64,000 nucleotides of DNA from Dictyostelium discoideum (lineage: Eukaryota): positions 224,001-288,000 of the forward strand of contig CM000154.2 of assembly GCA_000004695.1 (NCBI GenBank), in the 5' to 3' direction. The notes under the pieces are model-generated. The model saw only the letters and a program-made list of their open reading frames with translations. It did not search any database and was not told the origin of the DNA. The position numbers were made by a program, and so were the translations under genes. Positions within the stretch are counted from its first letter, which is position 1. Each line of letters opens with the position of its first letter. Of the stretch, positions 1 through 64,000 are shown in pieces.

Positions 1-3000
1 CATTAAATAATAATAATAATATTTCACCATCATTATCATCGTCATCATCATCATTATTAAATACACCAAATAAAAGAAATTCAATTCAACTTTCAAAATC
101 AACTTCATTTGAACAACAAAATCAACAACAACAACAACAAAATTTATTATCACCAAATAGTTATAGAAATTCAATATCATTTAGTAAATCACCATCATTT
201 GAAGGTAGTCAATCAACTGGATCATCAAGATCAATATCACCAATTTCATCACCAATTAAAAATAGTACTACTGGCAATAGTAATTTATCAAAATCAACAT
301 CTTTTGAAAAGATAGAAGCTAGTAATACTACTAATAATAATACTATTATTATTGCAGAAGAGAGTAGAGTTATTGAAAAAATAGTCGAAAAGATAATTGA
401 AGTTGAAAAGATAGTAGAAGTTGAAAAGATAGTAGAAGTTGAAAAGATAGTAGAAGTTGAAAAGATAGTAGAAGTTGAAAAGATTGTTAAAGTTGATGAT
501 ATCGAAAAGCTAACAAATTTACAAGATCAATTAACTGAACAACAACAACAATATCAAGAGAAATCATTGAAATTGGTAAACTTGGAATTGGAATTACAAG
601 AAAAGAGTAATCAACTTGTTGATAAATCTAATCAACTTTCAACAATGCAAGCAACCAATTCAGAGTTAATGGAAAAGATTGGCGGATTAATGAATGATCT
701 AACCGATATTCCAACTCAAGATATTAAAGAGAAAGATGAGATAATTGCAAATCTAAAGATTGAGAGTGAAAAGAATTTAAAATGCTTTCAAGATGATTTC
801 AATGCTTTACAATCTCGATACAGTCTTACCATTGAGCAAACTAGTCAATTGCAAGATAGAATTAAGCAATTAATAAATGAATTACAAGAGAGGGATGATA
901 AATTCATTGAGTTTACAAACTCATCAAATCAATCATTGGCTGATAACCAACGTGTAATCGACCAATTAACCAATGAGAAACAATCAATAACTCTACAATT
1001 ACAAGATCAACAAGATATAAAAGAAAAGGAATTTCAATTTGAAAAACAACAATTATTAAGTCAAATTGATTCAATCACAACAAACATTCAAGAATATCAA
1101 GATAAATTCAATAATTTACAACAAGAATTCAATACTCAACAAACTTTAAATCAACAAGAAACTCATAGATTAACTCAACAATTATATCAAATAAATACAG
1201 ATTATAATGAAAAACAAACTCAATTACAATCGGAAATTAAAGATAATCAAACTATAAATGAACAATTAAATAAACAATTATCAGAAAAAGATAAAGAAAT
1301 TGAAAAACTTTCAAATCAACAAGAACAACAACAAGATGAAAAAATTAATAATCTTTTATTAGAAATTAAAGAAAAAGATTGTTTAATTGAAAGAATTAAT
1401 CAACAACTTTTAGAAAATATTGATTTAAATTCAAAATATCAACAATTACTTTTAGAATTTGAAAATTTTAAATTAAATTCATCAAAAGAAAAAGAAAATC
1501 AATTAAATGAATTACAAAGTAAACAAGATGAAAGATTTAATCAATTAAATGATGAAAAACTTGAAAAAGAAAAACAATTACAATCAATTGAAGATGAATT
1601 CAATCAATATAAACAACAACAATTAAGCTCAAATTCAAATATTGATCAACAATTACAATCTACTATTATTGAATTATCAGAATTAAAAGAACAAAAAGAA
1701 TTAAATGATTCAAAATTAATTGAAAAAGAAAAACAATTACAACAATTACAACAAGAATTTGACCAACTAAATGAAAAAAATCAAAAAGATCACCAAGATC
1801 AATTAGAATTACTTGAAAAACAATTAAAACAATTACAACAAGAATATGATCAATTAAATGAAACTAATCAATCAATTGAAAATCAATTAAATCAACAAAA
1901 TTTAATTAATAAAGAGAATTTAAATGAAAAAGAGCAAGAATTACTAAAATTACAAAATCAATTAAATCAACAAATTGAAAAGATTCAATTTGATCAACAA
2001 GAATTTTCAAAACAAAATTCAATTAATATTGAATTAGTAAATGAAAAAAATGAAAAATTAATTCAATTACAACAAGATTATGATCAATTAAAACAACAAA
2101 ATAGATCAAATGATGAAAAAGATGAAAATGATTTAATTGAAAAAGAAAATCAACTAAAGTCAATTCAAAATGAATTAAATCAATTAATTGAAAAGAATGA
2201 ATCTGATCATAAAGAACAACAATTAAAACAACAATCAATTGAAAATGATTTAATTGAAAAAGAGAATCAAATTCAACAATTACAATCACAATTAAATGAA
2301 CAAAGACAACAACAATCAAATCAGTTATCTGAGAAAGATCAACAATTGAATCAGTTAATTGAAAAGAATCAATTTGATCAAAAAGAACAACAATTAAAAC
2401 AACAATCAATTGAAAATGATTTGTTTGAAAAAGAGAATCAAATTCAACAATTGCAATCACAATTAAATGAACAAAGACAACAACAATCAAATCAGTTGTC
2501 TGAAAAAGATCAACAATTGAATCAATTAATTGAAAAGAATGAATCTGATCAAAAAGAACAACAATTAAAACAACAATCAATTGAAAATGATTTAATTGAA
2601 AAAGAGAATCAAATTCAACAATTACAATTACAATTAAATGAACAAAGACAACTACAATCTGAAGTATCAATTGATAATGATAAAATTTTAGAATTAGAAA
2701 AACAATTAAAACAATGTCAATCGGATTTATTGAAATTAAATGATGAAAAACAACAACAAGATAAACAATTACAAGATAAACAAATTGAATTTGATCAATT
2801 ACAATTAACTTTTAATCAATTTAAAAATGATAAAGATTCACAATTCATTCAATTACAAGATGATCAAAAACAACAATTACAATCAATCCAACAAGATTTA
2901 AATCAATTAAAACAAGAAAATCAAGAAAAAGAAAAACAACTCTCTGAAAAGGATGAAAAATTACAATCAATTCAATTTGAGAATCAAGAAAAAGAAAAAC

Positions 3001-4533
3001 AACTCTCTGAAAAGGATGAAAAGTTACAATCAATTCAACAAAATTTAAATCAATTAAATGATGAAAATCAAGAAAAAGTAAAACAATTTTCTGAAAAAGA
3101 CGAAAAGCTACAATCAATTCAACAAGATTTAAATCAATTAAAACAAGAAAATCAAGAAAAAGAAAAACAACTCTCTGAAAAGGATGAAAAGTTACAATCA
3201 ATTCAACAAGATTTAAATCAATTAAATGATGATCAAATTAAAAAAAATGAAAAATTAAAAGAAAAAGAAGAACAATTATTAAAATTACAACAAGACTTTA
3301 ATGATCAACAATCTCAACAATTAAAACAATTGGAAGAGAAATTATCTGAAAAAGAAAATCAATTACAACAATTAAAACAAGAGAATGAAATCAATCAATT
3401 GAATCAACAACAACAATCAAATGAAATTATTCAACAATTAAAAGATCAACTTTTAAAACAACAACAACAAGAACAACAAGAAAATAATAATGAAAAAGAA
3501 ATTGAAAGATTAATACAAGAGATTGAACAATTGAAACAACAACAAGAGATTGACCAATCGGAACTTAGTAATAAAGAGATTAAAATCCAAACTACTCAAC
3601 AAGAATTTGATCAACTCTCTCATAATAGATCAAAGGATCAATTACATTTACAACAATTACAACAAGAGTTGGATCAGTTGAAACAAAGTTTTGATGATCA
3701 AGATCACCAATTTAAGAAAGTAATTGATGAACGTTACAATCTTCAATTACAATTGGAACAATCAACTCTTTCAAATAATCAATTAGATCAATTATTAAAG
3801 GAGAAATTAAAACCATTGGAATTGGACTCCAATGAAAAACAAAAAACAATTGATGATTTACTTTCAAACATTTCAAATCTCCAAATTTCACTTCAAAATG
3901 ATAAAGATTTAATCTCTGAAAGAAATAATTCAATTAAAACTTTAGAATCACGTATTACTCAACAATTATCATTATTAGATGAAAAAGATAATTTAATTAA
4001 AGATTTACAACAACAAAAACAACAACAACAACAACCTCCAACTGCTTCATCATCACCATCATCATCACCATCATTATTATCCTCAACACCAACACCAAAA
4101 CCACAACGTCCAAATCAAATTGAAATTGATAGACTTGTAAATGAAATTGTAAATAGAAATCAAGATTTAATAAGAAAAAATAAAACCAAATTCTATAAAT
4201 TAGAAAATGGTGATTACATTGTAAATTCAATCATTTATAGATTATCTTTAGATGATGATAATGATTCTGATTTAATTGGTAAATATTAATATATATACAC
4301 ACATTATTAATAAATTATTTATTAACTAAATCCTATTTTTAAAATTTAATTTAGCACAAGAATATGAAAATGGTAATAGTACAACATTTGAGAAATCATT
4401 AAGAATTTTCCCATCAAAGAATACACGTCCAATATTCGATTGGAGAGCATTGTTCTTTATTGGTGCTGCTGTTTTAGCTATCTCTACTCTCTTTTCTTCT
4501 TCAAGACCAATCAAATATGAAAAACCAACTTAA
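1..4533 (+). CDS. Giant coiled-coil protein, 5' partial (begins upstream of window); exons 1..4278 and 4355..4533 joined; C-terminal tail anchor
   Basis: Frame 3 is open from nt 3 (Ser/Asn-rich, then EKIVEV x5, then >1200 aa of heptad-like Q/E/K/L-rich coiled coil). The track ORF 567..4289 is only the part after an internal TTG. The GKY-stop at 4287 coincides with a GTAAAT donor at 4279. A 76-nt AT-rich intron (4279..4354, ...tttag) joins in phase to exon 4355..4533. That exon encodes ...RALFFIGAAVLAISTLFSS-RPIKYEKPT*, a single C-terminal hydrophobic segment typical of a tail-anchored protein. Confidence 0.7.
2150..3230 (+). repeat. In-frame coding tandem repeats inside the coiled-coil gene: 3 x 171 bp (57-aa unit LIEKNESDQKEQQLKQQSIENDLIEKENQIQQLQSQLNEQRQQQSNQLSEKDQQLNQ, 2150..2660) and about 5 x 90-120 bp units (QEKEKQLSEKDEKLQSIQQDLNQLK, 2880..3230)
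   Basis: Near-identical nucleotide repeats seen directly. Minus-strand ORFs 2023..2670 and 2845..3201 are their antisense shadows. Confidence 0.85.
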
Positions 4534-4852
4534 ACATTGGTATTTTTTTTCTTATTACTTTCTTTCCTTTTTTTTTTCAATTGTACCAAATGTATATAGA
4601 GTGAAATAATATAAAAATATAAATATAAATATAAACATATATAAAAATAATAAAATATAAAATAAAATAAAATAAAATATATAAAAAAAAAAAAAAAAAA
4701 ATGAATTTAATTTCAATAAATCTAGTTTTATTTTATTAATTATTTGTTTAGAAAAAAAAAAAAATATTATTTTTATTATTTAAATTGATTACTGAATGGA
4801 TTAATTAAAAATTATTTAAATTAATTTATAAAAATGATTATTATTATTCTTT

Positions 4853-5450
4853 TTAAAATGATATATAGCCTGAATCTTCACCAACTACAACAGTTTTATA
4901 TTCATGGTAAAATGAAATAAAAAACAAATAATATAATGTAACGCATGTAATTTCACTTAATGCACATAAATTATTATATTCTTTATAATTTGTACTTTGA
5001 ACTAAATAATTTAAATTTGATTAGATAAATAAAAAAAAATTAGTATTAATAAATTAATAATAATAATTATAATTATAAAAACTTACATATTAATATGGCA
5101 ACTGTATATAAAACTGATAGTATAATTCTAAAGATAAATAATTTTGGTGCTAAAATATTTAAATGTAAATTATAATCTAAAGTAGTTGAAATTATAATAT
5201 AAAATAAACCAAAGATGAAATAGATGGCACTGAAAACTAAATGAACATTTCTAATATAATGTTGTGGGAATGAAATTACTCCTAATAATCCAATTGATTG
5301 AATTAATGCAATCAATAGACAAACTACTGAAAATGTTGAAACTAATGAATGTGGACTACATTTTTTAATTTGTAATCTGTTATATTGAAATTTGACAATA
5401 TATAAACCAATTGAAAGTATACTTGAAATTGCTAATCCAAATGTTGCCAT
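4853..5450 (-). CDS. Hypothetical 4-TM membrane protein; exon 5087..5450 plus speculative 3' exon 4853..5001
   Basis: ORF 5073..5450 (MATFGLAISSILSIGLYIV..., four hydrophobic helices). A perfect GTAAGT donor (plus 5081..5086) overlaps the apparent stop. An acceptor ...tttag at 5002/5003 opens a 49-codon in-phase frame (FQSTNYKEYNNLCALSEITCVTLYYLFFISFYHEYKTVVVGEDSGYISF*), which is unusual in AT-rich DNA. A GA-rich (plus CT-rich) non-AT island at 5590..5700 lies 140-250 bp upstream of the ATG. Confidence 0.45.
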
Positions 5451-5540
5451 TGGTAAATATTCAATTGTATCTGAAATATATGGTACTGTATCTTGATTTT
5501 CCTTTTTATTTTATTTTTATTTCATTTTATTTTATTAGTA

Positions 5541-5573
<33 letters not shown>

Positions 5574-5760
5574 AAAAAATTGTTAAACTAATTCCTTCAC
5601 ACCTTCTCATACTCATACACTTCTCTCTCAATACAACTCATCCCTTCTCAAACTTATTCTCTCTCTCTCTAACCCCACAATCTCACTTCATCTCTCCCTC
5701 ATTATATTATTATTTTTTTTTTTTTTTGTATTTCAAAAACATACGTATGGGTTTTGTTTA

Positions 5761-5920
5761 AAGTATAATATATATGAAAGTATTAGTGTGAGTGGTGTAA
5801 TGGAGGCCAATAAAAAAAATAATATTTTTTTAATCATTTTGTAGTTTTAAATAAATTAAATTATTTGAATTATTTTTTGTGTGATTAAAAAGTGATGTGT
5901 GTTAGTGTGTGGTTCAAAAA
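5761..5920. promoter_or_regulatory. G/GT-rich islands (gtgtgagtggtgtaatggagg; gtgatgtgtgttagtgtgtggttc) in otherwise AT-rich intergenic DNA; G-box (GBF-type)-like elements 230-380 bp upstream of the mccA start
   Basis: The sequence composition departs strongly from its surroundings. The motif class matches Dictyostelium G-box/CAE elements. A functional role is inferred. Confidence 0.3.
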
Positions 5921-6045
5921 AAAAAAGAAAAAAAAAAAAAAAAAAGAAAGAAAAAAAAAAATATATTAAAAAGATAAAAAAAAAAAGGGGTAAGGTTAAT
6001 TAAACGATAAGAAATTTTATTTTATTTTTTTTTTTTTTTTTTATT

Positions 6046-6085
<40 letters not shown>

Positions 6086-6144
6086 AAATGAAATTTCTAA
6101 AAGTCATTTGATCAATTCACTTTTTTTTTTAATATTACCCAAAA

Positions 6145-8443
6145 ATGTTTAGTTTAGGAAAATTGGTTAAAAAAGATGCTTTTTTTTATAGGTAAAAAAA
6201 TCTTCTTTTTTTTTTTTTTTTTAAAAATAAAATAAATAATAATAATATTGTACTAACATATTAATAAAAAAAAAAAAAAAAAAAAAAAAATTTCAAAATA
6301 ACCAACACACATTAATGATGATAATAATAACAATAATGATAATTATAATAATTATAACAATTAATTAATCAAATAATTAATAATATCTAGATATATAACA
6401 AATGTTAATAAAGATTTAAAAATTAAACCAATTACAAAGATATTAATTGCAAATAGAGGTGAAATTGCATGTCGTGTAATGAGAACAGCAAAATCAAAAG
6501 GTGTAAAAACCGTAGCAGTTTATAGTGAAGCAGATAAGAATTCATTACATGTTTCAATGGCAGATGAGAGTTATTTAATTGGACCAGCAGCAGCCAAAGA
6601 GAGTTATTTATGTGGAAATAAGATCATAGATGTAGCAAAGAGATCTGGAGCACAAGCAATTCATCCAGGTTATGGTTTCTTATCAGAGAATTCAGATTTT
6701 GCTGATCTCTGTGAGAGAGAAGGTATCATTTTCATTGGACCACCATCAGATGCAATCAAAGCAATGGGTAGCAAAAGTGCCTCAAAGGATATTATGATCA
6801 AAGCTGGCGTACCAACCATCCCAGGTTACCACGGTGAAGATCAGTCAATGAGTGTGTTGAAGAGTGAGGCTGCAAAGATTGGCTATCCAGTATTGATTAA
6901 AGCTGTTATGGGTGGTGGTGGTAAAGGTATGAGAATCGTTGAGAGAGAGGAGGATTTAGAGGACGGTGTTGAGTCCTCAAAGAGAGAGGCCACCGCATCC
7001 TTTGGTGATTCTAGAGTTTTGGTAGAAAAGTATTTAGTTCATCCAAGACATGTGGAGATTCAAGTTTTCGCCGATAGACATGGTAATTGTGTTCACCTCT
7101 TTGAGAGAGATTGTAGTGTACAAAGACGTCATCAAAAGATTATCGAAGAGGCACCAGCTCCACATCTCTCTGAGGAGCTTAGAAAGAAAATGGGTGATGC
7201 TGCAGTTGCCGCCGCCAAGGCTGTAGGTTACGTTGGTGCTGGTACCGTAGAATTCATTTTATCCGCTGATAATAGCTTCTTCTTTATGGAGATGAATACC
7301 CGTCTTCAAGTGGAGCATCCAATCACTGAAATGATCACCAAACAAGATTTAGTAGAATGGCAATTGAAGGTAGCCGAATCCCAAACACTCCCAATGGAGC
7401 AAGAACAATTGAAGATTCATGGTCACTCTTTCGAAGCTCGTATCTACGCAGAGAATCCAGATAGTGATTTCTTACCAGGTACAGGTAAATTAGCACATCT
7501 TTCAACACCAACACCATCCGATACTTTACGTGTTGAAACTGGTGTACGTCAAGGCGATGAAGTTAGCGTTTACTATGATCCAATGATTGCCAAATTGGTG
7601 GTATGGGATCAAGATAGAGAGAAGGCATTAAGATATTTAAGAAATGCTCTCGACGAGTACCATATCATTGGTCTCAATACAAACATCTCTTTCCTTAAGA
7701 GATTATCAACTCATCCTTCATTTATGGCTGGTGAAGTTGAAACTGGTTTCATCCCAATTCACAGAGAATCCTTAATGGCCCCACAAGCTCCAATGTCTGA
7801 TGATTCATTAGCATTGGCTGCCACAAGTTTACTCTTAAAAGAGATCACTCAACAAAAATCAAAAGAAGATCCAAACTCACCTTGGTCAAGTTTAGGTGGT
7901 TTCCGTATTAATCATAATTTAAAAAAACAAGTTAAATTCAATCAAAAAGATAATAAAGTTGTTGTTAATGTTGAATTCATTGGTGGTGGTGGTGCTGCTG
8001 CTAATGGTAAACATAACTTTAAAGTAACTTTAGATAATGGTAATGTCGTTGAAGTTTTAGATGCAAAATTAAATCAAAATAATGAAACTATTAGTGCTCA
8101 TGTAAATGGTAGATTCTATAATAACATTAAATCCGTCATTGTAAAGGATACTTTAACAATCTTTAATGAAGGTCAACAATACCAATTGGATATTCCTCAA
8201 GATGTTAAACCAAAAGGTGCTGATGGTGTATTGGGTTCTTTAGTTTCACCAATGCCTGGAAAAATCACTAAAGTTATGGTAAATGTTGGTGACATGGTTA
8301 AAAAGGGTCAACCAATCTTACTCATGGAAGCAATGAAAATGGAACATACTATTCGTTCTCCAATCGATGGTAAAGTTGAATCATTACCTTATAATGTTAA
8401 TGAAATCGTTGAGGATAAGAAAACTTTGGCTGTTATTGTTTAA
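6145..8443 (+). CDS. mccA: 3-methylcrotonyl-CoA carboxylase alpha subunit (biotin carboxylase plus biotinyl domain), mitochondrial; exons 6145..6191 and 6391..8443
   Basis: ORF 6479..8443 aligns closely with human MCCC1 as recalled from memory (KILIANRGEIACRVMRTAK..., GYGFLSEN, IIFIGPP, YHGEDQS, MIKAV.GGGGKGMRIV, FERDCSVQRRHQKIIEEAPAP, EMNTRLQVEHPVTEMIT, biotinylation motif AMKMEH). The frame is open upstream to 6377 with no Met. A short exon ATG 6145 (MFSLGKLVKKDAFFY-, K-rich presequence-like) ends at a GTAAAA donor at 6192. The ...tctag acceptor at 6389/6390 is in phase 2 and restores ...R YITNVNKDLKIKPITKILIANRGE. The 5' exon is inference only. Confidence 0.85.
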
Positions 8444-30726: not shown

Positions 30727-30799
30727 TGGAGAAGAAGGGTATCGATCCCTTTACCTCTCGCATGCTAAGCGAGCGCTCTACCATCTGAGCTACATCCCC
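30727..30799 (-). tRNA. tRNA-Ala (anticodon AGC), 73 nt, followed by a TTTTTT terminator
   Basis: Minus-strand sequence GGGGATGTAGCTCAGATGGTAGAGCGCTCGCTTAGCATGCGAGAGGTAAAGGGATCGATACCCTTCTTCTCCA folds as a cloverleaf: D-arm GCTC/GAGC, anticodon loop TTAGCAT, T-stem AAGGG/CCCTT. The acceptor stem has one T:T mismatch (positions 6:67) and one G:T pair. Confidence 0.7.
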
Positions 30800-30941
30800 T
30801 TTGTTGATATTTTAAGGAATTTAGCCTACATATATATTAAATTAAAAAAAGTATAATAATAATAATAATATAATAATAATAATATAATAATAATAATAAT
30901 ATAATAATAATAATATTAATAAAAAAAATAAGAATAACAAG

Positions 30942-30981
<40 letters not shown>

Positions 30982-30989
30982 AAACTCTC

Positions 30990-31670
30990 CTAGAACACAC
31001 TCAAATTGAGTGATGTTATTAAAAAAAAAAAATATATTAAATTTATATTATATGGGATTTTCCCTGTATAGCTTGTCGTTCGTTACAATAATAATTATTA
31101 TTACTATCAATTATCTCTAAAAATCAGTTATTAGAAAATTAAATATTTTTAAAATTAGTATAATATTTTAATTATTAAGTTTTAGCAAAATGCCAACCCA
31201 TTTTATATATACTATAAAATGCAAATTAAATATAAATAAATAAACAAATTAAACTAACAAATAAAATATAATTTATATAAGTCTTTCTAGTATACCACTT
31301 CCGTTACATCTCAAGAAGAAGCAACTAATTTGCTTGAGTTATTCCATTCAAAAATATATATAATTTCAATCTTATATAAAAAAAGGAGGACCAATAAAAT
31401 CCTCTTCATAGAATAAATAAATAAATACAAAGAAGACAAAAAAAATACAAATTCATAAAGAGCTAAAAAACTTTGTGATTTAGAAGAAAAATCTCACTTG
31501 TGAGGCGAAAAATATAGCCCAGAAAAATCAGATTGTCTAACACTCCACAAATTCATAAAGAGTTAATCTTCCAGGACACCTATCTATTTTTATAGATAAA
31601 ATGAAAACAAGAATCTTAGGAAAAGCAACTAACAATTGCATTATCCAATTCAACAACAAAAAAATAGTAA
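30990..31670 (+). mobile_element. Degenerate retroelement 3'-end remnants (two diverged copies of the TRE5-type tail ...AGCAACTAA..ATTGC.TTATCCAATTCAA(A)n at about 31316..31350 and 31615..31668; repeated caaattcataaagag) upstream of tRNA-Ala
   Basis: Similarity to the better-preserved tails at 47221..47267 and 57112..57169 in this same window. Confidence 0.35.
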
Positions 31671-44884: not shown

Positions 44885-44970
44885 TTGTAATTTTGACCAT
44901 AGATGAACAAGATTCGAACCAATGACTCTGGATACGAAGTTCAGGAGTTTGAATTTCAGCAAAAAAAAAA

Positions 44971-45043
44971 TGTCAAGTCAGAGGATCGAACTCTGGACCT
45001 TAGGATTATGAGACCTACGCTCTACCAACTGAGCCAACCTGAC
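44971..45043 (-). tRNA. tRNA-Met (anticodon CAU, elongator-like), 73 nt, poly-T terminator; the nearest ex-B-like motif is about 100 nt downstream (about 44850)
   Basis: Minus strand GTCAGGTTGGCTCAGTTGGTAGAGCGTAGGTCTCATAATCCTAAGGTCCAGAGTTCGATCCTCTGACTTGACA. Acceptor GTCAGGT/ACTTGAC pairs with one G:T. T-arm CAGAG/TTCGATC/CTCTG. Anticodon loop CTCATAA. The A10 terminator is at 44961..44970. Confidence 0.8.
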
Positions 45044-45156
45044 ATGTTGATGTTTTTGAAAAAAATTTGCACGATAACATTTTACATCAGATCGAAAAAA
45101 ACAAACAACAACAACAATCTCTTTTTTTGATTATTTCATTTTTCATATAAAAAAGA

Positions 45157-45187
<31 letters not shown>

Positions 45188-45191
<4 letters not shown>

Positions 45192-46897
45192 GGAACCAAG
45201 TTAATTAGAAAATTTCCAGATTTTTAACTTTTTAAAGAAAAATAAAAAAGATAGAAAGAAAATAAAATGAAAATCACAAACAACACCACAAATATTAAGC
45301 AACACAAATGCCTACAAAAAATAAGCGAAATTGTGGATAAAACTCAATTAAAAAAAAAACAATTCAAATACGTCATAAACATCAATCACGAACCAGACGA
45401 TAAAATAAAAAAAGATTTAGAAAAAAGTTTGGACAAAAAAGATGTTTTAATCAAAAGTAATAATACATTCAAAATTCTCACAGACAGTATTAGTACAGTA
45501 ATCTATTTTGTAAATATGTTTGATGCAGAATTAAAAGGACAATTTATAACCACTATAAGACCAAAAAATATGTATACAGATTTTGATTGGTATAAATCAC
45601 TCACAGAAATAGAATGGGTAATAGAAAATGAAGGATGTAAACTAATTAAATCAGAAATTAAAGGCGAAACTCTAATTATCAAAACAGTGAAAAGAGTCGT
45701 AGAAGAATTTGACACTATCATTGAACTAGACAATCTAACATTAATTGGACACTCCAACAAAGGATGGAGAGATCAAACCTCATTACCAGAAAATCAAGAA
45801 GAAAACAAAAATAAAAAACAATCAGATGAACAACAACCACAATCTACATCAGAACAAATACCAAAACAAGGAAAAAGAACAATCATTATCCCACCAATCA
45901 CATCCTCATCTAATGATAAAACATTTATGGCCCTAGATGATACAGCTCAAAAGGTAATAGAAGCATCACTAGAAAACGTAGATGAACTAACAAGAATAGA
46001 GAATGAGATCAATACACAATCGATAAACAATCAAGAAATTAAAACAAAATCAGAAAAACCTATCGAACCACCATCTCCATACAATACACCAATAAAACAA
46101 CACGGCGAAACAAAGGGACTAACAACGGAAGAAAAACTTAGAGAGGCAAATGATATCTTCGACTTCACCAGCCCAAACACTGATGCAATAAGAAAAATAG
46201 AATTCCCACTTTCAATCCCTTCAAATCAATGGTTCTTCTCCTCTCCAATAAAACATATCATGAGTTTCAGCCCAACCTATGGTACACCATCGAAAATTAT
46301 CGATTCACCAAGTAAATTGTTAAACACACCAAAAAAGAAACAACAAGACAAAACAAACAAGACCAACAAAACACCAGTCAAACCAAAATTGGGTGAATAT
46401 GGACAAAAAAGCATAAAAACAAAAATGGATGAAGATATAGACAACTTCAACAAGGAAATTCTAAAACAAATCAATAAATCAAAAAACCCCACAAACACAC
46501 AAGACCAACAACACAACGAACAAAGTAAAGATCAGTTAGAAGACAAAATAAACCAGAAACTTCAAAAGGTAGATAAAAATCTACCCCAAATAAAACTATA
46601 AAGAAAAACACAATAAGAATAGGTGTTTGGAACGTCCAAGGATCCAACACCATCCAATCTGCCAGCATAATAAACACCGTTTTAGACAACAACAAGCTGG
46701 ACGCAGCACTTCTAACTGAAACAAATATAAAAACAAATAAAATTTACTCAATAAATCAACAATATAAAAACAAAATAACACACCACGCACCAATTGATAA
46801 AACAGGACAAGGGGTGTCACAAATCATCATCAACACCCGCAATAGAACTTCCTAAACATCTCAAAAAATACAATAATTCACTCAGTACTTTCTATAA

Positions 46898-46905
<8 letters not shown>
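45188..46905 (+). mobile_element. TRE5-A-like non-LTR retrotransposon, 3'-truncated copy: 5'UTR segment, complete ORF1 (45267..46601, 444 aa) and the start of ORF2 (AP-endonuclease beginning ...IRIGVWNVQGSN...), ending in the tail ...CAATAGAACTTCCTAAACATCTCAAAAAATACAATAATTCACTCAGTACTTTCTATAAAT(A)n
   Basis: The ORF1 and 5'UTR sequence is duplicated at 46938..47170 and degenerately at 55431..55700. The tail sequence is duplicated at 55321..55385 after an ORF2 C-terminus with a CCHC knuckle. The element sits head-to-head upstream of the minus-strand tRNA-Met, the characteristic TRE5 target position. The exact 5' boundary is unresolved (45090..45190). Confidence 0.65.
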
Positions 46906-46937
<32 letters not shown>

Positions 46938-46939
<2 letters not shown>

Positions 46940-47267
46940 CAAGTTAATCAGAAAAATAAAAAAGATAGAAAGAAAATAAAATGAAAATCACAAACAACAC
47001 CACAAATATTAAGCAACACAAATGCCTACAAAAAATAAGCGAAATTGTGGATAAAACTCAATTAAAAAAAAAACAATTCAAATACGTCATAAACATCAAT
47101 CACGAACCAGACGATAAAATAAAAAAAGATTTAGAAAAAAGTTTGGACAAAAAAGATGTTTTAATCAAAAAGACCCTGTAAAAAAAAAAAAAAAAATAAA
47201 ATGAGATCTAGCATCTCAAGGAGAAGCAAATAATAATTGCGTTATCCAATTCAAAAAAAAAAAAAAA
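46938..47267 (+). mobile_element. Internally deleted TRE5-A-like copy: first 63 codons of ORF1 (46981..47170) fused to 3'-terminal module ...GAGAAGCAAATAATAATTGCGTTATCCAATTC(A)15
   Basis: ORF1 5' sequence is identical to 45267..45455. The 3' tail motif is shared with 57112..57169. Confidence 0.6.
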
Positions 47268-54610: not shown

Positions 54611-54684
54611 TGCTCGATGCAGGGATCGAACCTGCGACCGTGGCGTTATTAGCACCACGCTCTGCCGACTGAGCTAATCGAGCC
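54611..54684 (-). tRNA. tRNA-Ile (anticodon AAU), 74 nt
   Basis: Minus strand GGCTCGATTAGCTCAGTCGGCAGAGCGTGGTGCTAATAACGCCACGGTCGCAGGTTCGATCCCTGCATCGAGCA. Acceptor GGCTCGA/TCGAGCC. Anticodon stem TGGTG/CGCCA with loop CTAATAA. T-arm GCAGG/TTCGATC/CCTGC. Near-identical in anticodon and T arms to metazoan tRNA-Ile-AAT. Confidence 0.85.
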
Positions 54685-54699
54685 TTTTATATTTTTTGA

Positions 54700-55389
54700 T
54701 TAAAATTGGAAGATCAAGTTTTAAAAAAATATACAAATTCATACCAACTCCTGGCCAAAAAGAAATAATGACCAAAATTAATAGCAAACACCTTCCATTT
54801 AAAGAAATCAAAAAAATAATAAACATGAAAGGTAGAGATCTATTATGGAGATACACACTGAAAGCACTACCAAAAATATACAACATGCCATGCCAACAGT
54901 GTGGGGAAGATGAGACTTCAGAACATATATTCTTCAACTGCAAAGCCCACATCAAAAACACACAAGAAATCTTCAACTACACCCTAACTAAGTGTGGACA
55001 CACCACTCACACCTGGAATGTGAAGATTTTAAACCATCTACAAATTGCACTAGTAGCCAATTTAATAGCTATTATATTCGAAAAAATCTGGCACAAAAGA
55101 AATAAACTCATTCACGATGAAAAAGAAATAATAATTCACAGACAACAAGTAATACGTGAACTAATTAAAACACAAATAGCTGCATGGGACAGGACACAAG
55201 CGGTTATAAACAAAACATTAAGAATCAAATCAAAGCAACGGCCAGAAGAACAAAATAAATTAGACTCACTAATCTCGCTAAAGCTATTACAATTTAGCAG
55301 ACAATGGAACTCACCTCTTCACGCAATAGAACTTCCTAAACATCTCAAAAAATACAATAATTCACTCAGTACTTTCTATAAATAAATAA

Positions 55390-55430
<41 letters not shown>
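54700..55430 (+). mobile_element. TRE5-A-like 5'-truncated copy: ORF2 C-terminus (Cys-His knuckle CQQCGEDETSEHIFFNCKAH) plus 3' tail ...TTTCTATAAATAAATAAAT(A)40, inserted at the tRNA-Ile 5' end
   Basis: Track ORF 54696..55385. The last about 65 nt before the A-tail are identical to 46832..46898. Confidence 0.6.
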
Positions 55431-55435
<5 letters not shown>

Positions 55436-55729
55436 GGAACCCAAGTTAATCAAAAAATTTCCAGATTTTTAACTTTTTAAAGAAAATTAAAAAAATTAGA
55501 AGGAAATTAAATTGAAATTCACAACCACCCCCACAAATATTAAGCACCACAAATGCCTACAAAAAATAAGCGAAATTGGGGATAAAACTCAATTAAAAAA
55601 AAAACAATTCAAATACGTCATAAACATCAATTCCGGACCCAGACGATAAAAAAAAAAAAAATTTTAAAAAAAGTTGGGACAAAAAAAATGTTTTTATCAA
55701 AAGGAAAAAACCCATTTAAAATTTGGCCC

Positions 55730-55784
<55 letters not shown>

Positions 55785-57285: not shown

Positions 57286-58087
57286 CTTTTTTTTTAATGA
57301 TTTTGTTAGGGCAATGTTTAATTCCAACAGGTAAAGTTAAAGCAGAAGCATTAAGAAGGTAAATCTAAAGGATCAAAAAATTTTTTTTTGGTATTTTTGG
57401 TGACAAAAGATTTAAACCATTGTGATAATATTGGTTGTGCATTTAGTTTTGGAATGATTGTTAAGATCGCAGCCATGAATCAAATTATCACCAAAATTCA
57501 CCTAACTATAGAACGTATTGATAACTTAAATGAAAATAATGGAGGTCTTTTAAAATGTATTTAGAGTTGAAACCATTGGTGAGAGGTCCTCTTGAAAATA
57601 TGACAACCACTCATGCAACATAAAGTTCCAAATGTTAAATAAGAAAAATCCGGTCATATTTAAATACAATCAAGTTATGGCTGTCCGCAATGCAAAAAAA
57701 TCAAAATATTGGAAAATAGTTTCCACTACCGGCGAAATAAGAGTTTGAGACTTACTTCGAGGTTTCATTCACCTTCTCAAGCCCGGTTGTGATGCTAAAA
57801 ATGCTTCTTTGTCCAACGCTGGTCATTTTGGATTAAAATTTTATTATGTACTTCAAAGGAAACACCGGAAAAAAGTATATTCTAATTGTAGATAAAATTT
57901 AAAAATAAATATGAATTCATTTTAATTAATTTTTTTTTTGAATGGATAAATAAAAATCTTTTTTTTTTTTTGAATTGGATAACGCAATAATTTTTTTTTT
58001 TTTTTTTTTTTTTTGGTTTTTTTTTTTTTTTTTTTTGGTTACGTAAAATGATAAATAAAAATCTAGATTCCGTTATTTTTGAAAAAA

Positions 58088-58350
58088 TGTAATAAAGCTT
58101 GTTAGCTTTATAAATATATAATTAATAATTATATAATTGAATAATACTTTGTTATCTTTATTTAATATTAGTTTATATTTATAATATTCAATATTGTTTA
58201 TAAAATTATTCTTTAGTATTTATATTATTTATAATGAGTTGACAGTATTATTATTATTATTATTATATTATTTAAATGTGTGTCAACTATAATTAGTAAT
58301 GTAATATGCATATTTAATATCTATTAATTTTATAGAGTAACTTTATTACA
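58088..58350 (-). mobile_element. Long terminal repeat (3' LTR relative to the minus-strand element), 263 bp, bounded by inverted termini TGTAATAAAG...CTTTATTACA. A polypurine tract AAAAGGGGGGG (plus 58353..58363) is immediately internal
   Basis: 5'-TG...CA-3' ends with a 10-bp terminal inverted repeat. The PPT abuts the LTR edge exactly as in Ty3/gypsy and retroviral elements. Confidence 0.6.
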
Positions 58351-58947
58351 TATCCCCCCCTTTTAGTTGAAAAAAATTTTTCAATCTTTTAATATAAAAC
58401 ACATCATGATTTTTAATATTATCCAATACTAATTTGAATTTTAAATCGCTAACTCTCTCGTGTACTTTGAAAAGACCTTCCCAAGATTTATTGAGCTTTA
58501 CTGGACCAACAGTGGATTGTAAATAGACATAATCTCCTACTTGAATATTTGAACGAGAAACTTTTTTATTAATTTGTGATAATTGGTCTTTACCAAGATT
58601 ATCCTTAATGAGACAAGGACGTTTGAGGTTATTATTTACAATTTGGGCGAAATTATGAGCAAAATCTAATCTTGATAAATTTGTACATGGATTTCTTATT
58701 AATGGTTGAATTGAGGTTATTTGTGATTTAATTATTGAATTCTCTGTTTGATTTAATGATATTGATTTTAATGGTAAATTCGATGTTATTGGTGAATCTA
58801 TTGGTTCTTGGAATAAGAATTCTGGAATATCGTAATCTATTGGTAGTTGTTCTTCAATAGTTGGATACGATTTGATTGATAGTATATGATGAGAATTAAA
58901 ATTTTCAATTAAATGATCAGTATCTGTTAATAATTCTGATTTTGATG

Positions 58948-58978
<31 letters not shown>

Positions 58979-60010
58979 TGAATAATCAGATACTGTTTTA
59001 AATATAGTTTGTATACATGGTTGGGTTTCTTTAGATATTAATTTGGTACCAACATTGAATTCAAGATTCTTAATGATCATTTCTTTAAAATCAATGACTA
59101 AATTTAATCCAATTATTGTATCAATGCCAAATATACAATCAATTGATGTATCATTATCTTTAACAACATTAACTTTAACTCTAGCGAATGCTTTACCTAA
59201 TTTAATTGTTGTGTTACTTATTCCAATGATTTTGATTTGATTATTTGATGCTGATTTAACAGAATATTGTTCATTTTCAATCTTTAATTTTAACTTTTTA
59301 GCAATACTTTCCCAAACAATAGTAAGTGATGAACCAGTATCAATCAAACCTCTAACATTTTTATTATTTATTAATAAAGCTGCATTCATACTATCTATTC
59401 CAATTGAATTAATTGTACTATTATTGACCATTGTAATTGAATTAGTTCTATTATTGTAATTGTTATTATTATTTTTATCTTTTGACCAACACTCTTGAAT
59501 TACATGACCTTTCTTTTTGCAATATTTACAAAATTTTGTGATTGAATTTACTTGATTTTGTGGTGCTTTATAAGGGGATGATTGTGGTGACATTTGTGGT
59601 GATCGATTATAATATTGATTTTTAAAAATTGGTGTTGAAATTTCTTCAGATTCAATTGATTGTTGTTCGTTTTGAGATGTAACATATTGAGGGGATGTTG
59701 CAGAATAACCAGAACCCGAACCTAGATATCTTTGATTACCAAATTCTTGCAACGTCTTTGCAACTAATTGACCAGTGTACATTGATCTACCTTTGATACG
59801 AATTGAACCATCTTCACAAGACTTTGCAATATCTATTGCTCTTTTTAATGATTTTGGTGCACATTTTGTAATTTTAATACCCAATTCAGTACCAACAGCT
59901 GAATAAAACAATTGTATTTTAAACTTTTCTGAAATATCAACTGCTGAACATTTTGATAGAAATTTACCAATTAATATATCTAATGTATTGTATTTATATT
60001 CTCCCAACTT
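58346..60010 (-). mobile_element. Internal region of an internally deleted Ty3/gypsy-type LTR retrotransposon (DGLT-A-like, tRNA-associated): Gag (retrotransposon-gag fold, CCHC knuckle CKYCKKKGHVIQECW), aspartic protease (LIDTGSSLTIV), then directly an integrase C-terminal segment (GDYVYLQ...WEGLFKV...HDVFYIKRLK). RT/RNaseH/IN core absent
   Basis: Track ORF 58346..60238. No YxDD/RT motifs occur anywhere in 630 aa. The N-terminal 42 codons (60112..60238) are antisense of tRNA-Gly and beyond the gap, so they are spurious. The ORF terminates inside the PPT/LTR start. Confidence 0.6.
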
Positions 60011-60111
60011 GNNNNNNNNNNNNNNNNNNNNNNNNNNNNNNNNNNNNNNNNNNNNNNNNNNNNNNNNNNNNNNNNNNNNNNNNNNNNNNNNNNNNNNNNN
60101 NNNNNNNNNNN
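60011..60111. other. Assembly gap (101 N)
   Basis: Run of n. Presumably hides the 5' LTR and the target junction with tRNA-Gly. Confidence 0.95.
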
Positions 60112-60120
60112 ATATAAAAA

Positions 60121-60191
60121 GCGTATGTGGTCTAGTGGTATGATGCATCCCTGCCACGGATGCGAACTGGGTTCGATTCCCAGCATACGCA
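60121..60191 (+). tRNA. tRNA-Gly (anticodon GCC), 71 nt; ex-B box GAACGTAGGTTCAATTCCC at 60225..60243
   Basis: GCGTATGTGGTCTAGTGGTATGATGCATCCCTGCCACGGATGCGAACTGGGTTCGATTCCCAGCATACGCA. Acceptor GCGTATG/CATACGC. Anticodon stem CATCC/GGATG with loop CTGCCAC. T-arm CTGGG/TTCGATT/CCCAG. The same layout as metazoan tRNA-Gly-GCC. Confidence 0.85.
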
Positions 60192-60598
60192 TAATTTTCC
60201 ATTTGTTCAATTTGTTCGATTATAGAACGTAGGTTCAATTCCCTAAAAAATCATGAGTCTGTATTTATATACAGAGTTGCACATCTCTAGAAAAACAATT
60301 TTATTTTTAATAATATAAAAAAACCTCTCAAACAAAGTCAAACCAGTAAAAAAAAAACCAAAAACAATCAAACAACCCAAACACTATTCAAAAATCAATT
60401 AAAAAAACAAATAATCAACAAACCATAATAAATGGAAACAATGTGGGTAGTTCAAACATTCCACTACAAAAATCCAGCCAAATTCCAATTTAAAAAAAAA
60501 AAATTTAAGAAAAAAGATACAATCGAGTTTTTTTTTTTTTTTTTTTAGTAATAAATTAAATAATTTTATTTTATTTTTATTTTATTTTTTTTTATTTT

Positions 60599-63500
60599 TT
60601 ATCTTTTCATATGATTAATAAATCTTAAAGCTAAATAACCAAGAAAAGTGTAAGCGCAGAAATAACCACCAAGGATTATTAAATTATAAAATTGACGATC
60701 GTAAGCGTCGTTCATACCATATTGCAAAAGCATAGTATCACCACTTTGAATGGCACAATATTTTTTAGTGAAATTTGTTCCGGCAATAGGAATTATACTA
60801 TATTGATCTTCTTCACAAAAAAAAGGTTCACCTTTAAGTTCAGTGATACTTAGAGTTTCCAAGCCATATTTAGAAAAGACCAAATAATGCATCCAAATCC
60901 AACCTCTTGGAATATTGTTTACTGGAATGAAGAAACCACCGAAAAGACCCAAGAAATTCAAGCCAACACCAGAGACCAAAATCGCAATTGGAATGGTAGG
61001 TAGAGTGAGTGCGAATAAAGTTGCCAAACTATCGTAACACATGATAACCAAAAGATAAACACTGAGAGAGAAGAAAAACTTCCAACCATGATCGCCCAAT
61101 GTTAATCCAGTTAAAAAGAACATTGGTATCCAATAGGAGAAAGCAGTTAAAACCATCATTGGTAAATCAGTGATAACACTTGCCAAAATATAAAGATGGG
61201 CTGGATAAGTACCAGCTGATGATTCTCTGTAATAGACTGAACGATCTTCGACGATGGTTGGTACTTTACCAATGGAAGCCATACCACCAAAGAGGAAACC
61301 CAAGAAAACCAAAGCGATTCTATTACGTGCACCAGTTTGATCATTATCCAATCTAAGAAAGAGAGTACCAATTACAATTGCAGGAATGAATGAACGTAAG
61401 AATCTAAGTAGAATAGTTTGTGGACGACGAACATGATTTAACCAACCTCTTTTAACCAAACTATGAAGTTGAGCTGTTGCAGGAGCAGAGTATTTACCTT
61501 TATATTTTGGAACGTCAACACCCTCTGGTACGATAGTTTTTGATTCCAATCTTTGAATTGAATTTGAATAATGAATGGATGATTTAAAGTAATCACTTGC
61601 ACTTTGACCTGTTGATGGTGGATGTTCAGCGATTTCCAAAATGAAATCAGCTGGATTTCTACCATGTTCATATTGATAACCTGCACTTGTGAAATGTTGA
61701 ATAACGGTTGAACTATTGTCACCAGTATCACCAAAATAAATTACTTTACCCTTGTCCAAGAGTAAAAGTTGATCGAATTTCTCAAAGATTTCTTGTGATG
61801 GTTGATGAATTGTACAAACTACAGTTCTACCAGATTCTGCAATCTTTTTAACACAATTCATAACTTTTAAAGCGGCTGAAGAATCTAAACCAGAGGTAGG
61901 TTCATCAAGGAAAATCAAATGAGGATCTGAAGCCAACTCAATACCAATACTAACTTTTTTACGATTTGCCAATGAAATACCCAATGTTGGATTTGGACCA
62001 ATGGTTGTATTTTGCATTTTAGTTAGAGAGAGAACTGATAAAATCTCATCGATTAATTTAACTCTATCCTTTTGAAGATAAGATGATGGTAAACGACAAT
62101 TTGCACTAAATTCAATTGCTTCACGAACTGTTAAATTTGCAGAAAGAATATCTTGTTGTTCAACATAACCAGTGAAACGAGTGATATTCATATCCTTTAC
62201 CAACTGACCATTGATTCTAATGTCACCAGTGATTGTACCAACATTTTTTCTCTTTGCCAATACATCCATTAATGTTGATTTACCAGCACCTGAAGGACCC
62301 ATTAAAGCGCACATACCTGGAACAATGAAACCATTTACATCCTTTAGTAACTCTAAGGTTACTTTTTCCTTTTTACCAGTTTCTTTATTATCTTTAACAG
62401 AGGGTACAACATAATTTAAATTTTGAAAAGTCATATAACAACCATTCCATTTATGTTTAACCTCTTTATCCTTTTTATCTTTTTTCTCTTTCTTTTTCTT
62501 TAATTTAATTTGTCTTGGTGGTTTTTTATTTTCAAATCTAATATATTTAACNCCTAAAAAGAAGATGAAAAAGAATGTACAAACGAAACCTAAAATGATT
62601 ACAATATCAACCCAACGCATATAAGAATTATCAGAGAAACCAAATTGATTTAAAAAATCACTACCAGTACTATATTGACAAATTTGATTACCTTGATAAC
62701 CACCATCGGCATACGATACATTTAATAGAGGATAATTTGATGGTGGAATCTTTTCCATTGGTGAACAATGAAATTCCAAACCATACAATTCATTCGATGA
62801 TACCATATCGATTACATATCTCAATGGTGATAATGCATTTAACCAAATCCACCAACCTGGAATTTGTAAACGACTAATCATATAACCTGACATAATCATA
62901 AATAATACAACTATCGCTGGACAAATTAAACTTGCCAATAATTGAGCCGATGTGAAAGCTGATGTAACTTGAAAAATACCTTGAGCAATTAAATTGGTCA
63001 ATGCCATACCCAATATGAAAACTATGAAATTATCAACACGTGCTTGAAAACCTGCAATCCAATAACAACAACTTGAAAATAATATTGCCTCTATCAATGA
63101 GATTGGAATTTTAGTGATTACCAATGATAAAAAGTATGGGAAATTTCTATAATACTTTGAGTCCTTTTGGTCATCGAAAATGCCTCTTAATGTGAAAAAC
63201 TCTTCAACACTACCAATCGTTGTCCAAATATGTAATACCATTGCAAAGTAAACTAATCCAAATCTATTTCTAGCATCAGCTTGTGTGAACCCCATCTTAA
63301 CAAATAATGATCCGATTACACAACCCATAAAAATGGCTTGAAAGAAACGTACTGCATATTGCATTTTCATAATTTTCATAACTTTAATATGACGTGCCAA
63401 TAAATGTTTTAATTCATAACGTACTGATGATTTACCATTATCACCAGTTTCTAATTTCTTTATTAAATGATCTGAAACTTTAATATCACTTGGTATTAAT

Positions 63501-64000
63501 TGTTGCATTGATTGTATTGTTTTTTGATTTAATTCAGATTCTTTAAATAATTTAACCAAATCCATCTTTTCAACATTTCCACTATCTGCACCACCTAATA
63601 ATAAACTTTTGCTTTCGTCATCACCACCATCTTTTGATGATAATTCAATTTTATCAGTTATCATATATTTTGAAGGTTCAACTGAAACCTCTTGCATAAA
63701 TTCTGCCAATGGTTGGTTTGGTAATGGTGCTAATCCAATCGATGAGAAATAAGGTAATAAATTATTTAATTCTCCAAAGTAAATTAAATTACCACCTTCA
63801 CCTAAAATTAAAATGTCATCGAATAAATTGGTTAATTCAACCGATGGTTGTAATAATGATACCATAACCGATGCTTTTGCCTCTTTGGCAATGGTTTTAA
63901 CTTTTGATATTACATTATAGGATGTTGCTGAATCCAAGCCTGTCGAAGGTTCATCCATTAATATTAAATTTGGTGATCTTTTTGTAAATTCATTAGCAAT
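60599..64000 (-). CDS. Full-size ABC transporter, G subfamily (PDR-type, NBD-TMD-NBD-TMD), 5' partial (continues beyond window end)
   Basis: The window holds the end of NBD1 ([16 protein letters not shown]..., Q/H loop), TMD1 (six helices), NBD2 ([24 protein letters not shown]; ABC signature [31 protein letters not shown]) and TMD2, with stop at 60599. The frame is open to nt 64000. One n at 62552 gives X. Confidence 0.85.
   Translation of the reverse strand: [1133 protein letters not shown]

Follow-up and report, generated by a model that had tools for sequence, protein, structure and literature searches.

The element described here is a retrotransposon copy in a 64,000-nucleotide stretch of Dictyostelium discoideum DNA (assembly GCA_000004695.1, contig CM000154.2, positions 224,001 to 288,000), called the window in what follows. 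The copy lies on the minus strand, from position 58088 up to an assembly gap. With a probability that we put at about 85%, it is one insertion of an approximately 2.6-kb non-autonomous derivative of the DGLT-A family, mobilised in trans. The parts retained are a long terminal repeat (LTR), a primer-binding site (PBS), a leader, one open frame encoding Gag, a CCHC knuckle, a protease, a linker of about 110 amino acids and an integrase C-terminal domain, a polypurine tract (PPT) and the second LTR. The features of the window copy and of its immediate surroundings are as follows, with the open reading frame (ORF) and remnants of the reverse transcriptase (RT) given in window coordinates.

58084..58087, minus strand: probable 3′ copy of the target-site duplication, 4 bp (TTTT on the element strand), directly outside the LTR end; the 5′ copy lies within the gap
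58088..58350, minus strand: 3′ LTR, 263 bp, TG...CA, read directly from the sequence, starting with TGTAATAAAG and ending with CTTTATTACA (10-bp terminal inverted repeat); its first ~19-24 nt are TGTAATAAAGTTACTCTATAA
58351..58364, minus strand: PPT AAAAGGGGGGG followed by ATA, abutting the LTR; the same tract is found in all sister copies
58346..60010, minus strand: genuine portion of the ORF with 554 codons and a stop, its 5′ end cut by the assembly gap; annotated partial gene DDB_G0287455
58349..58681, minus strand: integrase C-terminal domain, SH3-like, GPY/F-type (GDYVYLQ...GLFKV...VFYIKRLK), beginning just past the end of the catalytic core
58682..59017, minus strand: linker between protease and integrase tail, about 110 residues, from the sequence
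58682..58771, minus strand: remaining low-complexity part of the linker, which by motif-level resemblance may be a diverged 'TIQP' spacer repeat; origin uncertain
58772..58906, minus strand: segment derived from the C-terminal end of RNase H and the beginning of the RNase H-integrase spacer (ENFNSHHILSIKSYPTIEEQLPIDYDIPEFLFQEPIDSPITSNLP, corresponding to ENFLADALSRYPDRNQQPIDCDIPEKIFTITQYPVASPSTSVLP), from BLASTP and Smith-Waterman
58904..58945, minus strand: remnant of the RT N-terminal leader (SKSELLTDTDHLIE, which matches SKPGSLIDIEHSIK in full-length elements), from tblastx and from aligning the nucleotides with L004/L009 (79% over 48 bp)
59120..59374, minus strand: retropepsin-type aspartic protease, active site LIDTGSS at 59327-59347 (Pfam Asp_protease_2, E 9e-11; gag-asp_proteas, E 9e-10)
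59489..59530, minus strand: CCHC zinc knuckle CKYCKKKGHVIQEC (CX2CX4HX4C), weak Pfam zf-CCHC matches, fitting the DGLT-A signature in PMC5006619
59531..60010, minus strand: Gag region, its N-terminal 82 residues hidden in the gap; 79% identical to the N-terminal stretch of P0199, a full-length DGLT-A polyprotein
60012..60111: assembly gap of 100 N, a placeholder size, from the sequence
60121..60191, plus strand: tRNA-Gly(GCC), found by ARAGORN, probable original target; linkage from the AX4 scaffold only

An initial annotation, made from the sequence alone, had described a 630-codon ORF (58346-60238) ending precisely at the PPT and next to a gap of 101 N. Of these codons, 75 are translated Ns, tRNA gene and flank. 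The real frame comprises 554 codons here and 636 in a gap-free assembly, the gap counts 100 N, and the frame runs through the PPT to a TAA stop formed by nucleotides 3-5 of the LTR. Residue for residue, the 554 amino acids encoded at 58349-60010 agree with the partial AX4 entry DDB_G0287455, which places the window on AX4 chromosome 5, and the best protein matches of the ORF are D. discoideum proteins. Chance can be set aside as an explanation, since another genomic copy matches the element DNA at 98.9% over 1.9 kb.

The domains first read from the sequence were largely recovered. The 263-bp LTR with inverted ends stands next to the PPT (58088-58364), and the CCHC knuckle (59489-59530) and the DTGS protease are present in the minus-strand ORF. 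The Pfam scan gave no Gag match for the region at 59531..60010, which can nevertheless be taken as Gag from its position upstream of the knuckle, its homology to DGLT-A and the literature description (PMC5006619). For P0001, an AlphaFold2 model based on eight aligned sequences reached a mean pLDDT of only 30.7 and could not be used. The integrase module was likewise found where it had been described, with a weak SH3_Tf2-1 match (18.9-19.1 bits); a sister copy, P0011, reaches the Integrase_p58_C cut-off. This domain shows 75-78% nucleotide identity to the integrase 3′ end of the RT-bearing copies L004 and L011, and 46% amino-acid identity to residues 1309-1422 of P0199. In the Pfam scan of the window ORF, no RT, RNase H or integrase-core domain was detected. 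No Chromo match followed the integrase module either, the ORF ending a few residues past it.

The family was assigned with the help of the gap-free assembly GCA_054883475.1, which holds the same locus (L003) with proteins identical to those of AX4 and probably represents the AX2 laboratory strain (bioRxiv 10.1101/2025.08.01.668227). In this gap-closed copy, TGGCGACATCGTCTTTC is located 2 nt past the left LTR (L003 5829-5845). It is present in all AX4 sister copies and is exactly the published DGLT-A PBS (PMC5006619). In the wild-isolate subfamily described below, TGGCGACATCGACTC occupies the PBS position. A primer complementary to the PBS was sought in the window and none was found. The Gag-protease part is 79% identical over 405 amino acids to P0199, the 1423-aa DGLT-A polyprotein of D. 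cf. discoideum, and a profile including full-length relatives matched Ty3 Gag-Pol (7q5b) with E 1e-73. Because of the PBS match, the Gag-protease identity and the Ty3 profile match, the window element can be classified as Ty3/gypsy and as a derivative of DGLT-A, the type suggested in the initial annotation. The termini and length of the LTR, the PPT beside the right LTR, the CX2CX4HX4C Gag in frame with the protease and the lack of a chromodomain are all as in DGLT-A. DGLT-A members also insert 13-33 bp upstream of tRNA genes, whichever way they point; five sister copies lie 12-28 bp upstream, in either orientation, and for the window copy the tRNA-side junction falls in the gap. An autonomous member would carry RT, RNase H and a complete integrase in a single ORF, and the window element does not.

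Compared with DGLT-A elements of about 5 kb, the window type measures 2.6 kb and encodes 636 residues as against 1423-1437, its ORF running through the PPT into the LTR. In P0199, the order of domains is protease (290-374), RT (475-632), RNase H (695-818), integrase zinc domain (1062-1121), core (1138-1234) and C-terminal domain (to 1420). Positions 1-1692 of the short element align to positions 1-1655 of L004, from the LTR through the end of the protease, and positions 2006-2594 align to L004 3631-4244, from the integrase C-terminal domain through the LTR. Alignment with the full-length L011 gives the same two-block pattern. On the integrase side, the junction falls right after the catalytic core (...FNRQPTLPLDTTLNVNFYS/NSLRLDF).

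The initial annotation had the protease joined directly to the integrase tail without RT, RNase H or integrase core. Those domains are indeed absent, but about 110 residues lie in between. The linker starts with SKSELLTDTDHLIE, which corresponds to the RT N-terminal leader. In its middle, ENFNSHHILSIKSYPTIEEQLPIDYDIPEFLFQEPIDSPITSNLP is 59% identical to the full-length protein over 29 aa (BLASTP, E 1e-4), with a Smith-Waterman score of 76 as compared to 41.4 ± 7.0 for shuffled sequences, none of 1000 shuffles reaching 76. The same segment showed no similarity to the remainder of Pol. At the nucleotide level, the sole match of the linker in the RT-bearing copies is the 48-bp RT leader, so that the spacer origin is visible in the protein only. 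The last ~30 linker residues had no significant match outside the short elements in a HMMER search of 1.84 billion representative proteins. For the wild-isolate linker, 454 of 1000 shuffles scored as high against the spacer, which indicates no tie beyond composition. The linker is thus not foreign; part of it derives from the RT N-terminus and from the RNase H-integrase spacer.

Because this retained RT-leader and spacer sequence separates the protease from the integrase tail, the element carries two internal deletions relative to a full-length DGLT-A (about 5 kb, with a polyprotein of about 1420-1440 aa). The first removes RT and RNase H. Through the second, the integrase has lost its N-terminal extension, zinc domain and catalytic core, together with most of the spacer that separates it from RNase H. 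Splicing was weighed as the origin of the deletions and rejected, as the junctions show no AG/GT and the spacer sequence kept is non-contiguous.

The same architecture was found at five AX4 genes, DDB_G0279931, DDB_G0271456, DDB_G0287455 (the window copy), DDB_G0276009 and DDB_G0277283. The first four share a 90% protein cluster and the last belongs to a neighbouring cluster. The AX4-type elements measure 2586-2628 bp and have junctions and linker in common. The four copies outside the window are located as follows.

L001, DDB_G0279931: 14 bp upstream of tRNA-Ile, target duplication TTTC
L002, DDB_G0277283: 14 bp upstream of tRNA-Leu, target duplication CTAA
L005, DDB_G0271456: 28 bp upstream of tRNA-Val, target duplication ACGG
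L006, DDB_G0276009: no tRNA found; 3′ LTR cut by another poly(A) element

The LTRs of the AX4 sister copies (256-268 bp) are 100% identical within a copy and 95-98% identical between copies. The 3′ LTR of the window shows the same 95-98% identity to them, and it matches both LTRs of the same locus in L003 at 100%, the 5′ one in 244/244 bases that are retained there. A wild isolate (GCA_054859385.1) contains two further short copies of 2667-2671 bp, with about 75% nucleotide identity to the AX4 type. They are located 12 bp (duplication TCCG) and 14 bp (duplication CATA) upstream of tRNA-Leu genes, and their LTR pairs have no mismatches and one short indel. The integrase-side junction is the same in this subfamily, which keeps about 10 more RT-leader residues. 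In total, five sister copies are inserted 12, 14, 14, 14 and 28 bp upstream of different tRNA genes, the untruncated ones with their own 4-bp duplication, and perfect 4-bp duplications occupy the matching position in six sister elements.

These data bear on whether the window copy is a dead relic, that is, a full-length DGLT-A at tRNA-Gly that once lost its middle by local deletion. Such a history would agree with the literature, which calls all D. discoideum DGLT-A copies incomplete and possibly inactive, and with the damage that the window copy also shows at its 5′ LTR. But the same junctions and linker recur at four other AX4 loci with different flanks, with their own duplications where both ends are intact, and the LTR pairs of all short copies are free of mismatches. 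Spread of a relic by segmental duplication is at odds with the unique flanks and duplications of the other loci. We therefore consider a relic very improbable. Since the junctions are common to independent loci that have their own duplications, the deletions predate the insertions; and because they recur at loci with their own duplications and tRNA genes, the window element is a transposing structured variant rather than a product of local decay. That the frame stays open across the deletion in a recurrent structured variant, as first suggested, agrees with the identical junctions at five AX4 loci and, on the integrase side, in the wild isolate. AX4 has been reported to contain nine non-solo DGLT-A copies, none of them full-length (Spaller et al., PMC5006619). 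At least five of these roughly nine copies are thus of the short form.

Some copies are mosaic. L002 is 99-100% like L001 except for two patches, in the C-terminal part of Gag and in the integrase tail, that are closer to the RT-bearing L004; L005 has one patch closer to L004. The mosaics would fit template switching between co-packaged short and long RNAs.

As the N-run touches the ORF, and the 630-aa ORF as first listed runs through it, a chimera created by mis-assembly at the gap had been named as a possible refutation. The junctions between protease, linker and integrase are located 1.0-1.3 kb from the gap. In addition, L003 6247-13911 corresponds to window positions 60010-52302 at 99% identity over 7.7 kb, and this independent gap-free assembly has the same junctions within an uninterrupted ORF of 636 codons (P0008). 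The chance that the ORF is such an artefact is, in our judgement, close to nil.

The gap-free assembly also clarified what the gap contains. At the gap site, L003 holds 678 bp of the 5′ part of the element and at least 5.5 kb of other retroelements. The 100-N run is therefore a placeholder for at least 6 kb. The 5′ LTR had been expected in the gap beside tRNA-Gly. It does lie there, but it lacks its first ~19 nt and stands directly behind the A-tail of a TRE5-type non-LTR element, which has an 809-aa ORF with an RT domain (RVT_1, E 3e-37). Farther upstream, part of a Skipper-like pol encodes RNase H and integrase and matches a chromodomain weakly, and no tRNA was found in L003 within 5.5 kb upstream of the element. 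With the neighbouring ABC-transporter ORF as protein query, no D. discoideum protein was returned.

TRE5 elements are known to insert 40-54 bp upstream of tRNA genes (PMC5911963). In the window, a TRE5-type 3′ end (module and A-tail, ~190 bp, 30846-31030) is found 47 bp upstream of a tRNA-Ala gene (30727-30799, minus strand), and it is the same 3′ end as that abutting the shortened 5′ LTR at L003 5388-5582. The 5′ end of the DGLT-A element points towards the 5′ end of tRNA-Gly. A plausible sequence of events is that the short DGLT-A inserted ~15-28 bp upstream of tRNA-Gly, and that the first ~20 nt of the LTR were later hit by a TRE5-type element directed to a point ~48 bp upstream of this tRNA gene. 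The AX4 assembly would then break at the gap because of a TRE5-type insertion nested in the 5′ LTR. From the AX4 scaffold, and from the lack of a tRNA on the side of the 3′ LTR, tRNA-Gly is the likely original target.

As to how the short element moves, it would be transcribed from its 5′ LTR into an RNA keeping all cis signals (R/U5, PBS, PPT, U3), and would make its own Gag-protease product. RT, RNase H and integrase from RT-bearing DGLT-A copies would act in trans to carry out reverse transcription, integration and targeting to tRNA genes. The RNase H and the integrase N-terminal extension of DGLT-A are reported to bind the TFIIIC subunit Tfc4 (Kling et al. 2018, PMC6101501), and the short element lacks both of these regions. 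Helper proteins would be required because the copies are correctly placed upstream of tRNA genes, with 4-bp duplications, without enzymes or Tfc4-binding regions of their own. That a deletion derivative was mobilised in trans, as had been proposed, thus gains support from the sister copies with their duplications at tRNA genes.

The coding state of the copies was then compared. Intact frames of 632-642 codons are found in 6 of the 7 short copies, and the three RT-bearing copies examined are all broken, L004 and L011 by a frame break and L009 by an in-frame stop. Read in its two alternative frames, the short ORF contains 48-101 stops. The 104-codon linker has no in-frame stop as compared to 11 and 15 out of frame, and 1 of 20000 shuffles was stop-free. 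In the Gag-protease part, the ratio of nonsynonymous to synonymous substitution rates (dN/dS, Nei-Gojobori) ranged from 0.14 to 0.24 in all comparisons, including that of the two short subfamilies, between which synonymous divergence is about 0.6-0.8. This points to purifying selection on Gag-protease. The integrase C-terminal domain gave 0.38-0.54 when the short-lineage version, of window or wild-isolate type, was compared, as against 0.10-0.28 among full-length-type versions; the tail therefore seems relaxed, yet not freely drifting. Possibly, the integrase tail and the open frame are kept for cis-acting RNA near the PPT, for escape from nonsense-mediated decay, for cis-preferential packaging or for a role of the tail as protein.

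The intact frames of the short copies next to the broken RT-bearing ones, the Gag-protease dN/dS of about 0.2 even between short subfamilies, and a linker frame that stays open although its sequence drifts could also mean that the Gag-protease(-integrase tail) protein is itself selected, as a source of excess Gag, as a dominant-negative regulator of copy number or as a host-domesticated gene. Every copy is, however, a complete LTR element at a tRNA gene, and the copies are multiple and form strain-specific subfamilies, the behaviour of a transposon and not of a fixed host gene. Selection signals can moreover come from autonomous ancestors via recombination, and with 98-99% identity among the AX4 copies, their intact frames do not count as independent of each other. 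Selection for the product is in our view unlikely, though less remote than a relic or an assembly error. A further proposal, tentative but somewhat more credible than a selected product, is that the short form is a long-lived DGLT-A satellite lineage, older than the subfamily split, that needs its own Gag-protease-integrase-tail protein and is the only form to have transposed recently in the AX4/AX2 lineage. If so, the satellite protein might supply an excess of Gag that is impossible for a single-ORF Gag-Pol, or recruit helper enzymes via the integrase tail, and recent transposition in AX4/AX2 would run counter to the published view of extinction.

Several points weigh against the preferred reading, an insertion of a trans-mobilised DGLT-A derivative. 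We infer trans-mobilisation from genome structure, together with the identity of the helper, co-packaging as the origin of the mosaics, and the tRNA-Gly target. According to the literature, AX4 has no full-length DGLT-A and no intact helper, the family being possibly inactive (PMC5006619, PMC5633606, PMC5911963). The 5′ duplication of the window copy and its junction on the side of tRNA-Gly fall in the gap. The absence of differences between LTRs of ~260 bp is a weak means of dating in D. discoideum, where mutation rates are very low, and gene conversion between the LTRs of one element is possible. On the RT side, the two subfamilies have different deletion endpoints, so the architecture may have had more than one origin. 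Finally, as with the non-independence of the AX4 frames, recombination between short and long elements tempers the coding evidence, and the low dN/dS of Gag-protease may partly reflect selection in autonomous elements.

In kind, the element belongs to what is already known, a non-autonomous LTR retrotransposon arisen by internal deletion and mobilised in trans; it is an ordinary but tidy case. No description of the short DGLT-A form or of its gene identifiers was found in the searchable literature, and an earlier mention in Glöckner et al. 2001 is possible. The closest named class is the plant TR-GAG (Chaparro et al. 2015, PMC4350172), which comprises non-autonomous elements of less than 4 kb with LTRs and cis signals, a single Gag-keeping ORF and signs of recent activity. 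The short DGLT-A copies, at 2.59-2.63 kb, resemble them in size, in LTR features and in the absence of the enzymes. Whereas the TR-GAG ORF encodes Gag only, the window element adds a protease and an integrase C-terminal domain in frame; it is also amoebozoan, has its clear origin in a named autonomous family and is targeted to tRNA genes. LARD and TRIM elements are LTR-bounded, keep PBS and PPT, depend on helpers and have no protein-coding capacity. The short DGLT-A differs from these in the 632-642-codon frame that 6 of 7 copies keep.

Yeast Ty3 makes target duplications of 5 bp, as compared to 4 bp in all six complete copies here, and DGLT-A differs from it in having Gag and Pol in one frame. 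The two share a superfamily, as seen in the 7q5b profile match, and Ty3 insertions lie about 15 bp upstream of where the mature tRNA sequence starts (PMC6101501). DGLT-A targeting is reported to rely on binding of RNase H and the integrase N-terminal extension to Tfc4, and not on binding of integrase to TFIIIB (PMC6101501). Skipper is a Ty3/gypsy element of the same genome, and one Skipper-like fragment is among the sequences that the gap conceals. Its chromodomain, separate ORFs, polypyrimidine tract in place of a PBS and centromeric clusters (PMC5006619) have no counterpart in the window element, and the gap-closed copy has a canonical TGG-type PBS.

For annotation, these results mean that five AX4 genes listed as "hypothetical protein" are copies of one non-autonomous retrotransposon, and that the gap in AX4 chromosome 5 hides a nest of elements and not 100 bases. 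A coherent, frame-preserving and recently copied family suggests that DGLT-A enzymes were available until recently. With 2.6 kb and all cis signals, the short element could serve as a small natural substrate for assaying tRNA-gene targeting by trans-complementation. The idea of Gag-retaining non-autonomous LTR elements, known from plants, is extended to Amoebozoa with a protease and an integrase tail. Current understanding is not overturned by the finding.

Other DGLT-A-related copies have different structures. L004 (4602-8845, D. discoideum wild isolate) is a 4244-bp DGLT-A with identical LTRs, 13 bp upstream of tRNA-Ala, with the duplication ATTT. It carries a clean 781-bp deletion, corresponding to L011 4712-5492 (RNase H and start of the spacer), and a frameshift, and is a different deletion derivative that likewise transposed. 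L011 (2489-6867, D. cf. discoideum, GCA_054859235.1) is the full-length DGLT-A with the 1423-aa gene model P0199. Its Gag-protease (2489-3763) and Pol (3688-6867) are in different frames that overlap by 76 nt, and the gene model bridges them with an intron. Either a mutation or a genuine frameshift arrangement may account for the break; as published, DGLT-A carries one ORF. In D. dimigraforme, L010 (4595-6460) contains a 414-aa ORF for Gag and protease only, DGLT-A-related at ~64% nucleotide identity, between tRNA-Phe and tRNA-Met. The LTR-like repeats flanking it are only 82% identical, and it is possibly an older, differently shortened derivative. P0080 (DDB_G0286503, AX4 chromosome 4, partial), the only AX4 protein found with DGLT-A integrase domains, begins inside the low-complexity RNase H-integrase spacer at an assembly gap.

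TRE5-type insertions are found at all three other tRNA genes of the window. Besides the one at tRNA-Ala, a TRE5-type element with a 444-aa ORF (45086-47266), 99.6% identical to a copy at L002 953-3136, begins 42 bp upstream of tRNA-Met (44970-45044, minus strand), and the 3′ part of a non-LTR retrotransposon with two A-runs (54731-55750) lies 48 bp upstream of tRNA-Ile (54611-54683, minus strand). At 57930-58040, long T-runs are separated by GAATGGATAAATAAAAATC and GAATTGGATAACGCAATAA, and GAATTGGATAACGCAATAA with a T-run is also what cuts short the 3′ LTR in the L006 copy (5146 onward). These stretches resemble minimal 3′ ends of a different, minus-strand poly(A) retroelement, and would have been about 60-160 bp upstream of tRNA-Gly before the DGLT-A insertion. 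Beyond tRNA-Gly, a single N at 62552 in the ORF of an ABC-G-type transporter (60599-63958, minus strand) gives an X in the translation.

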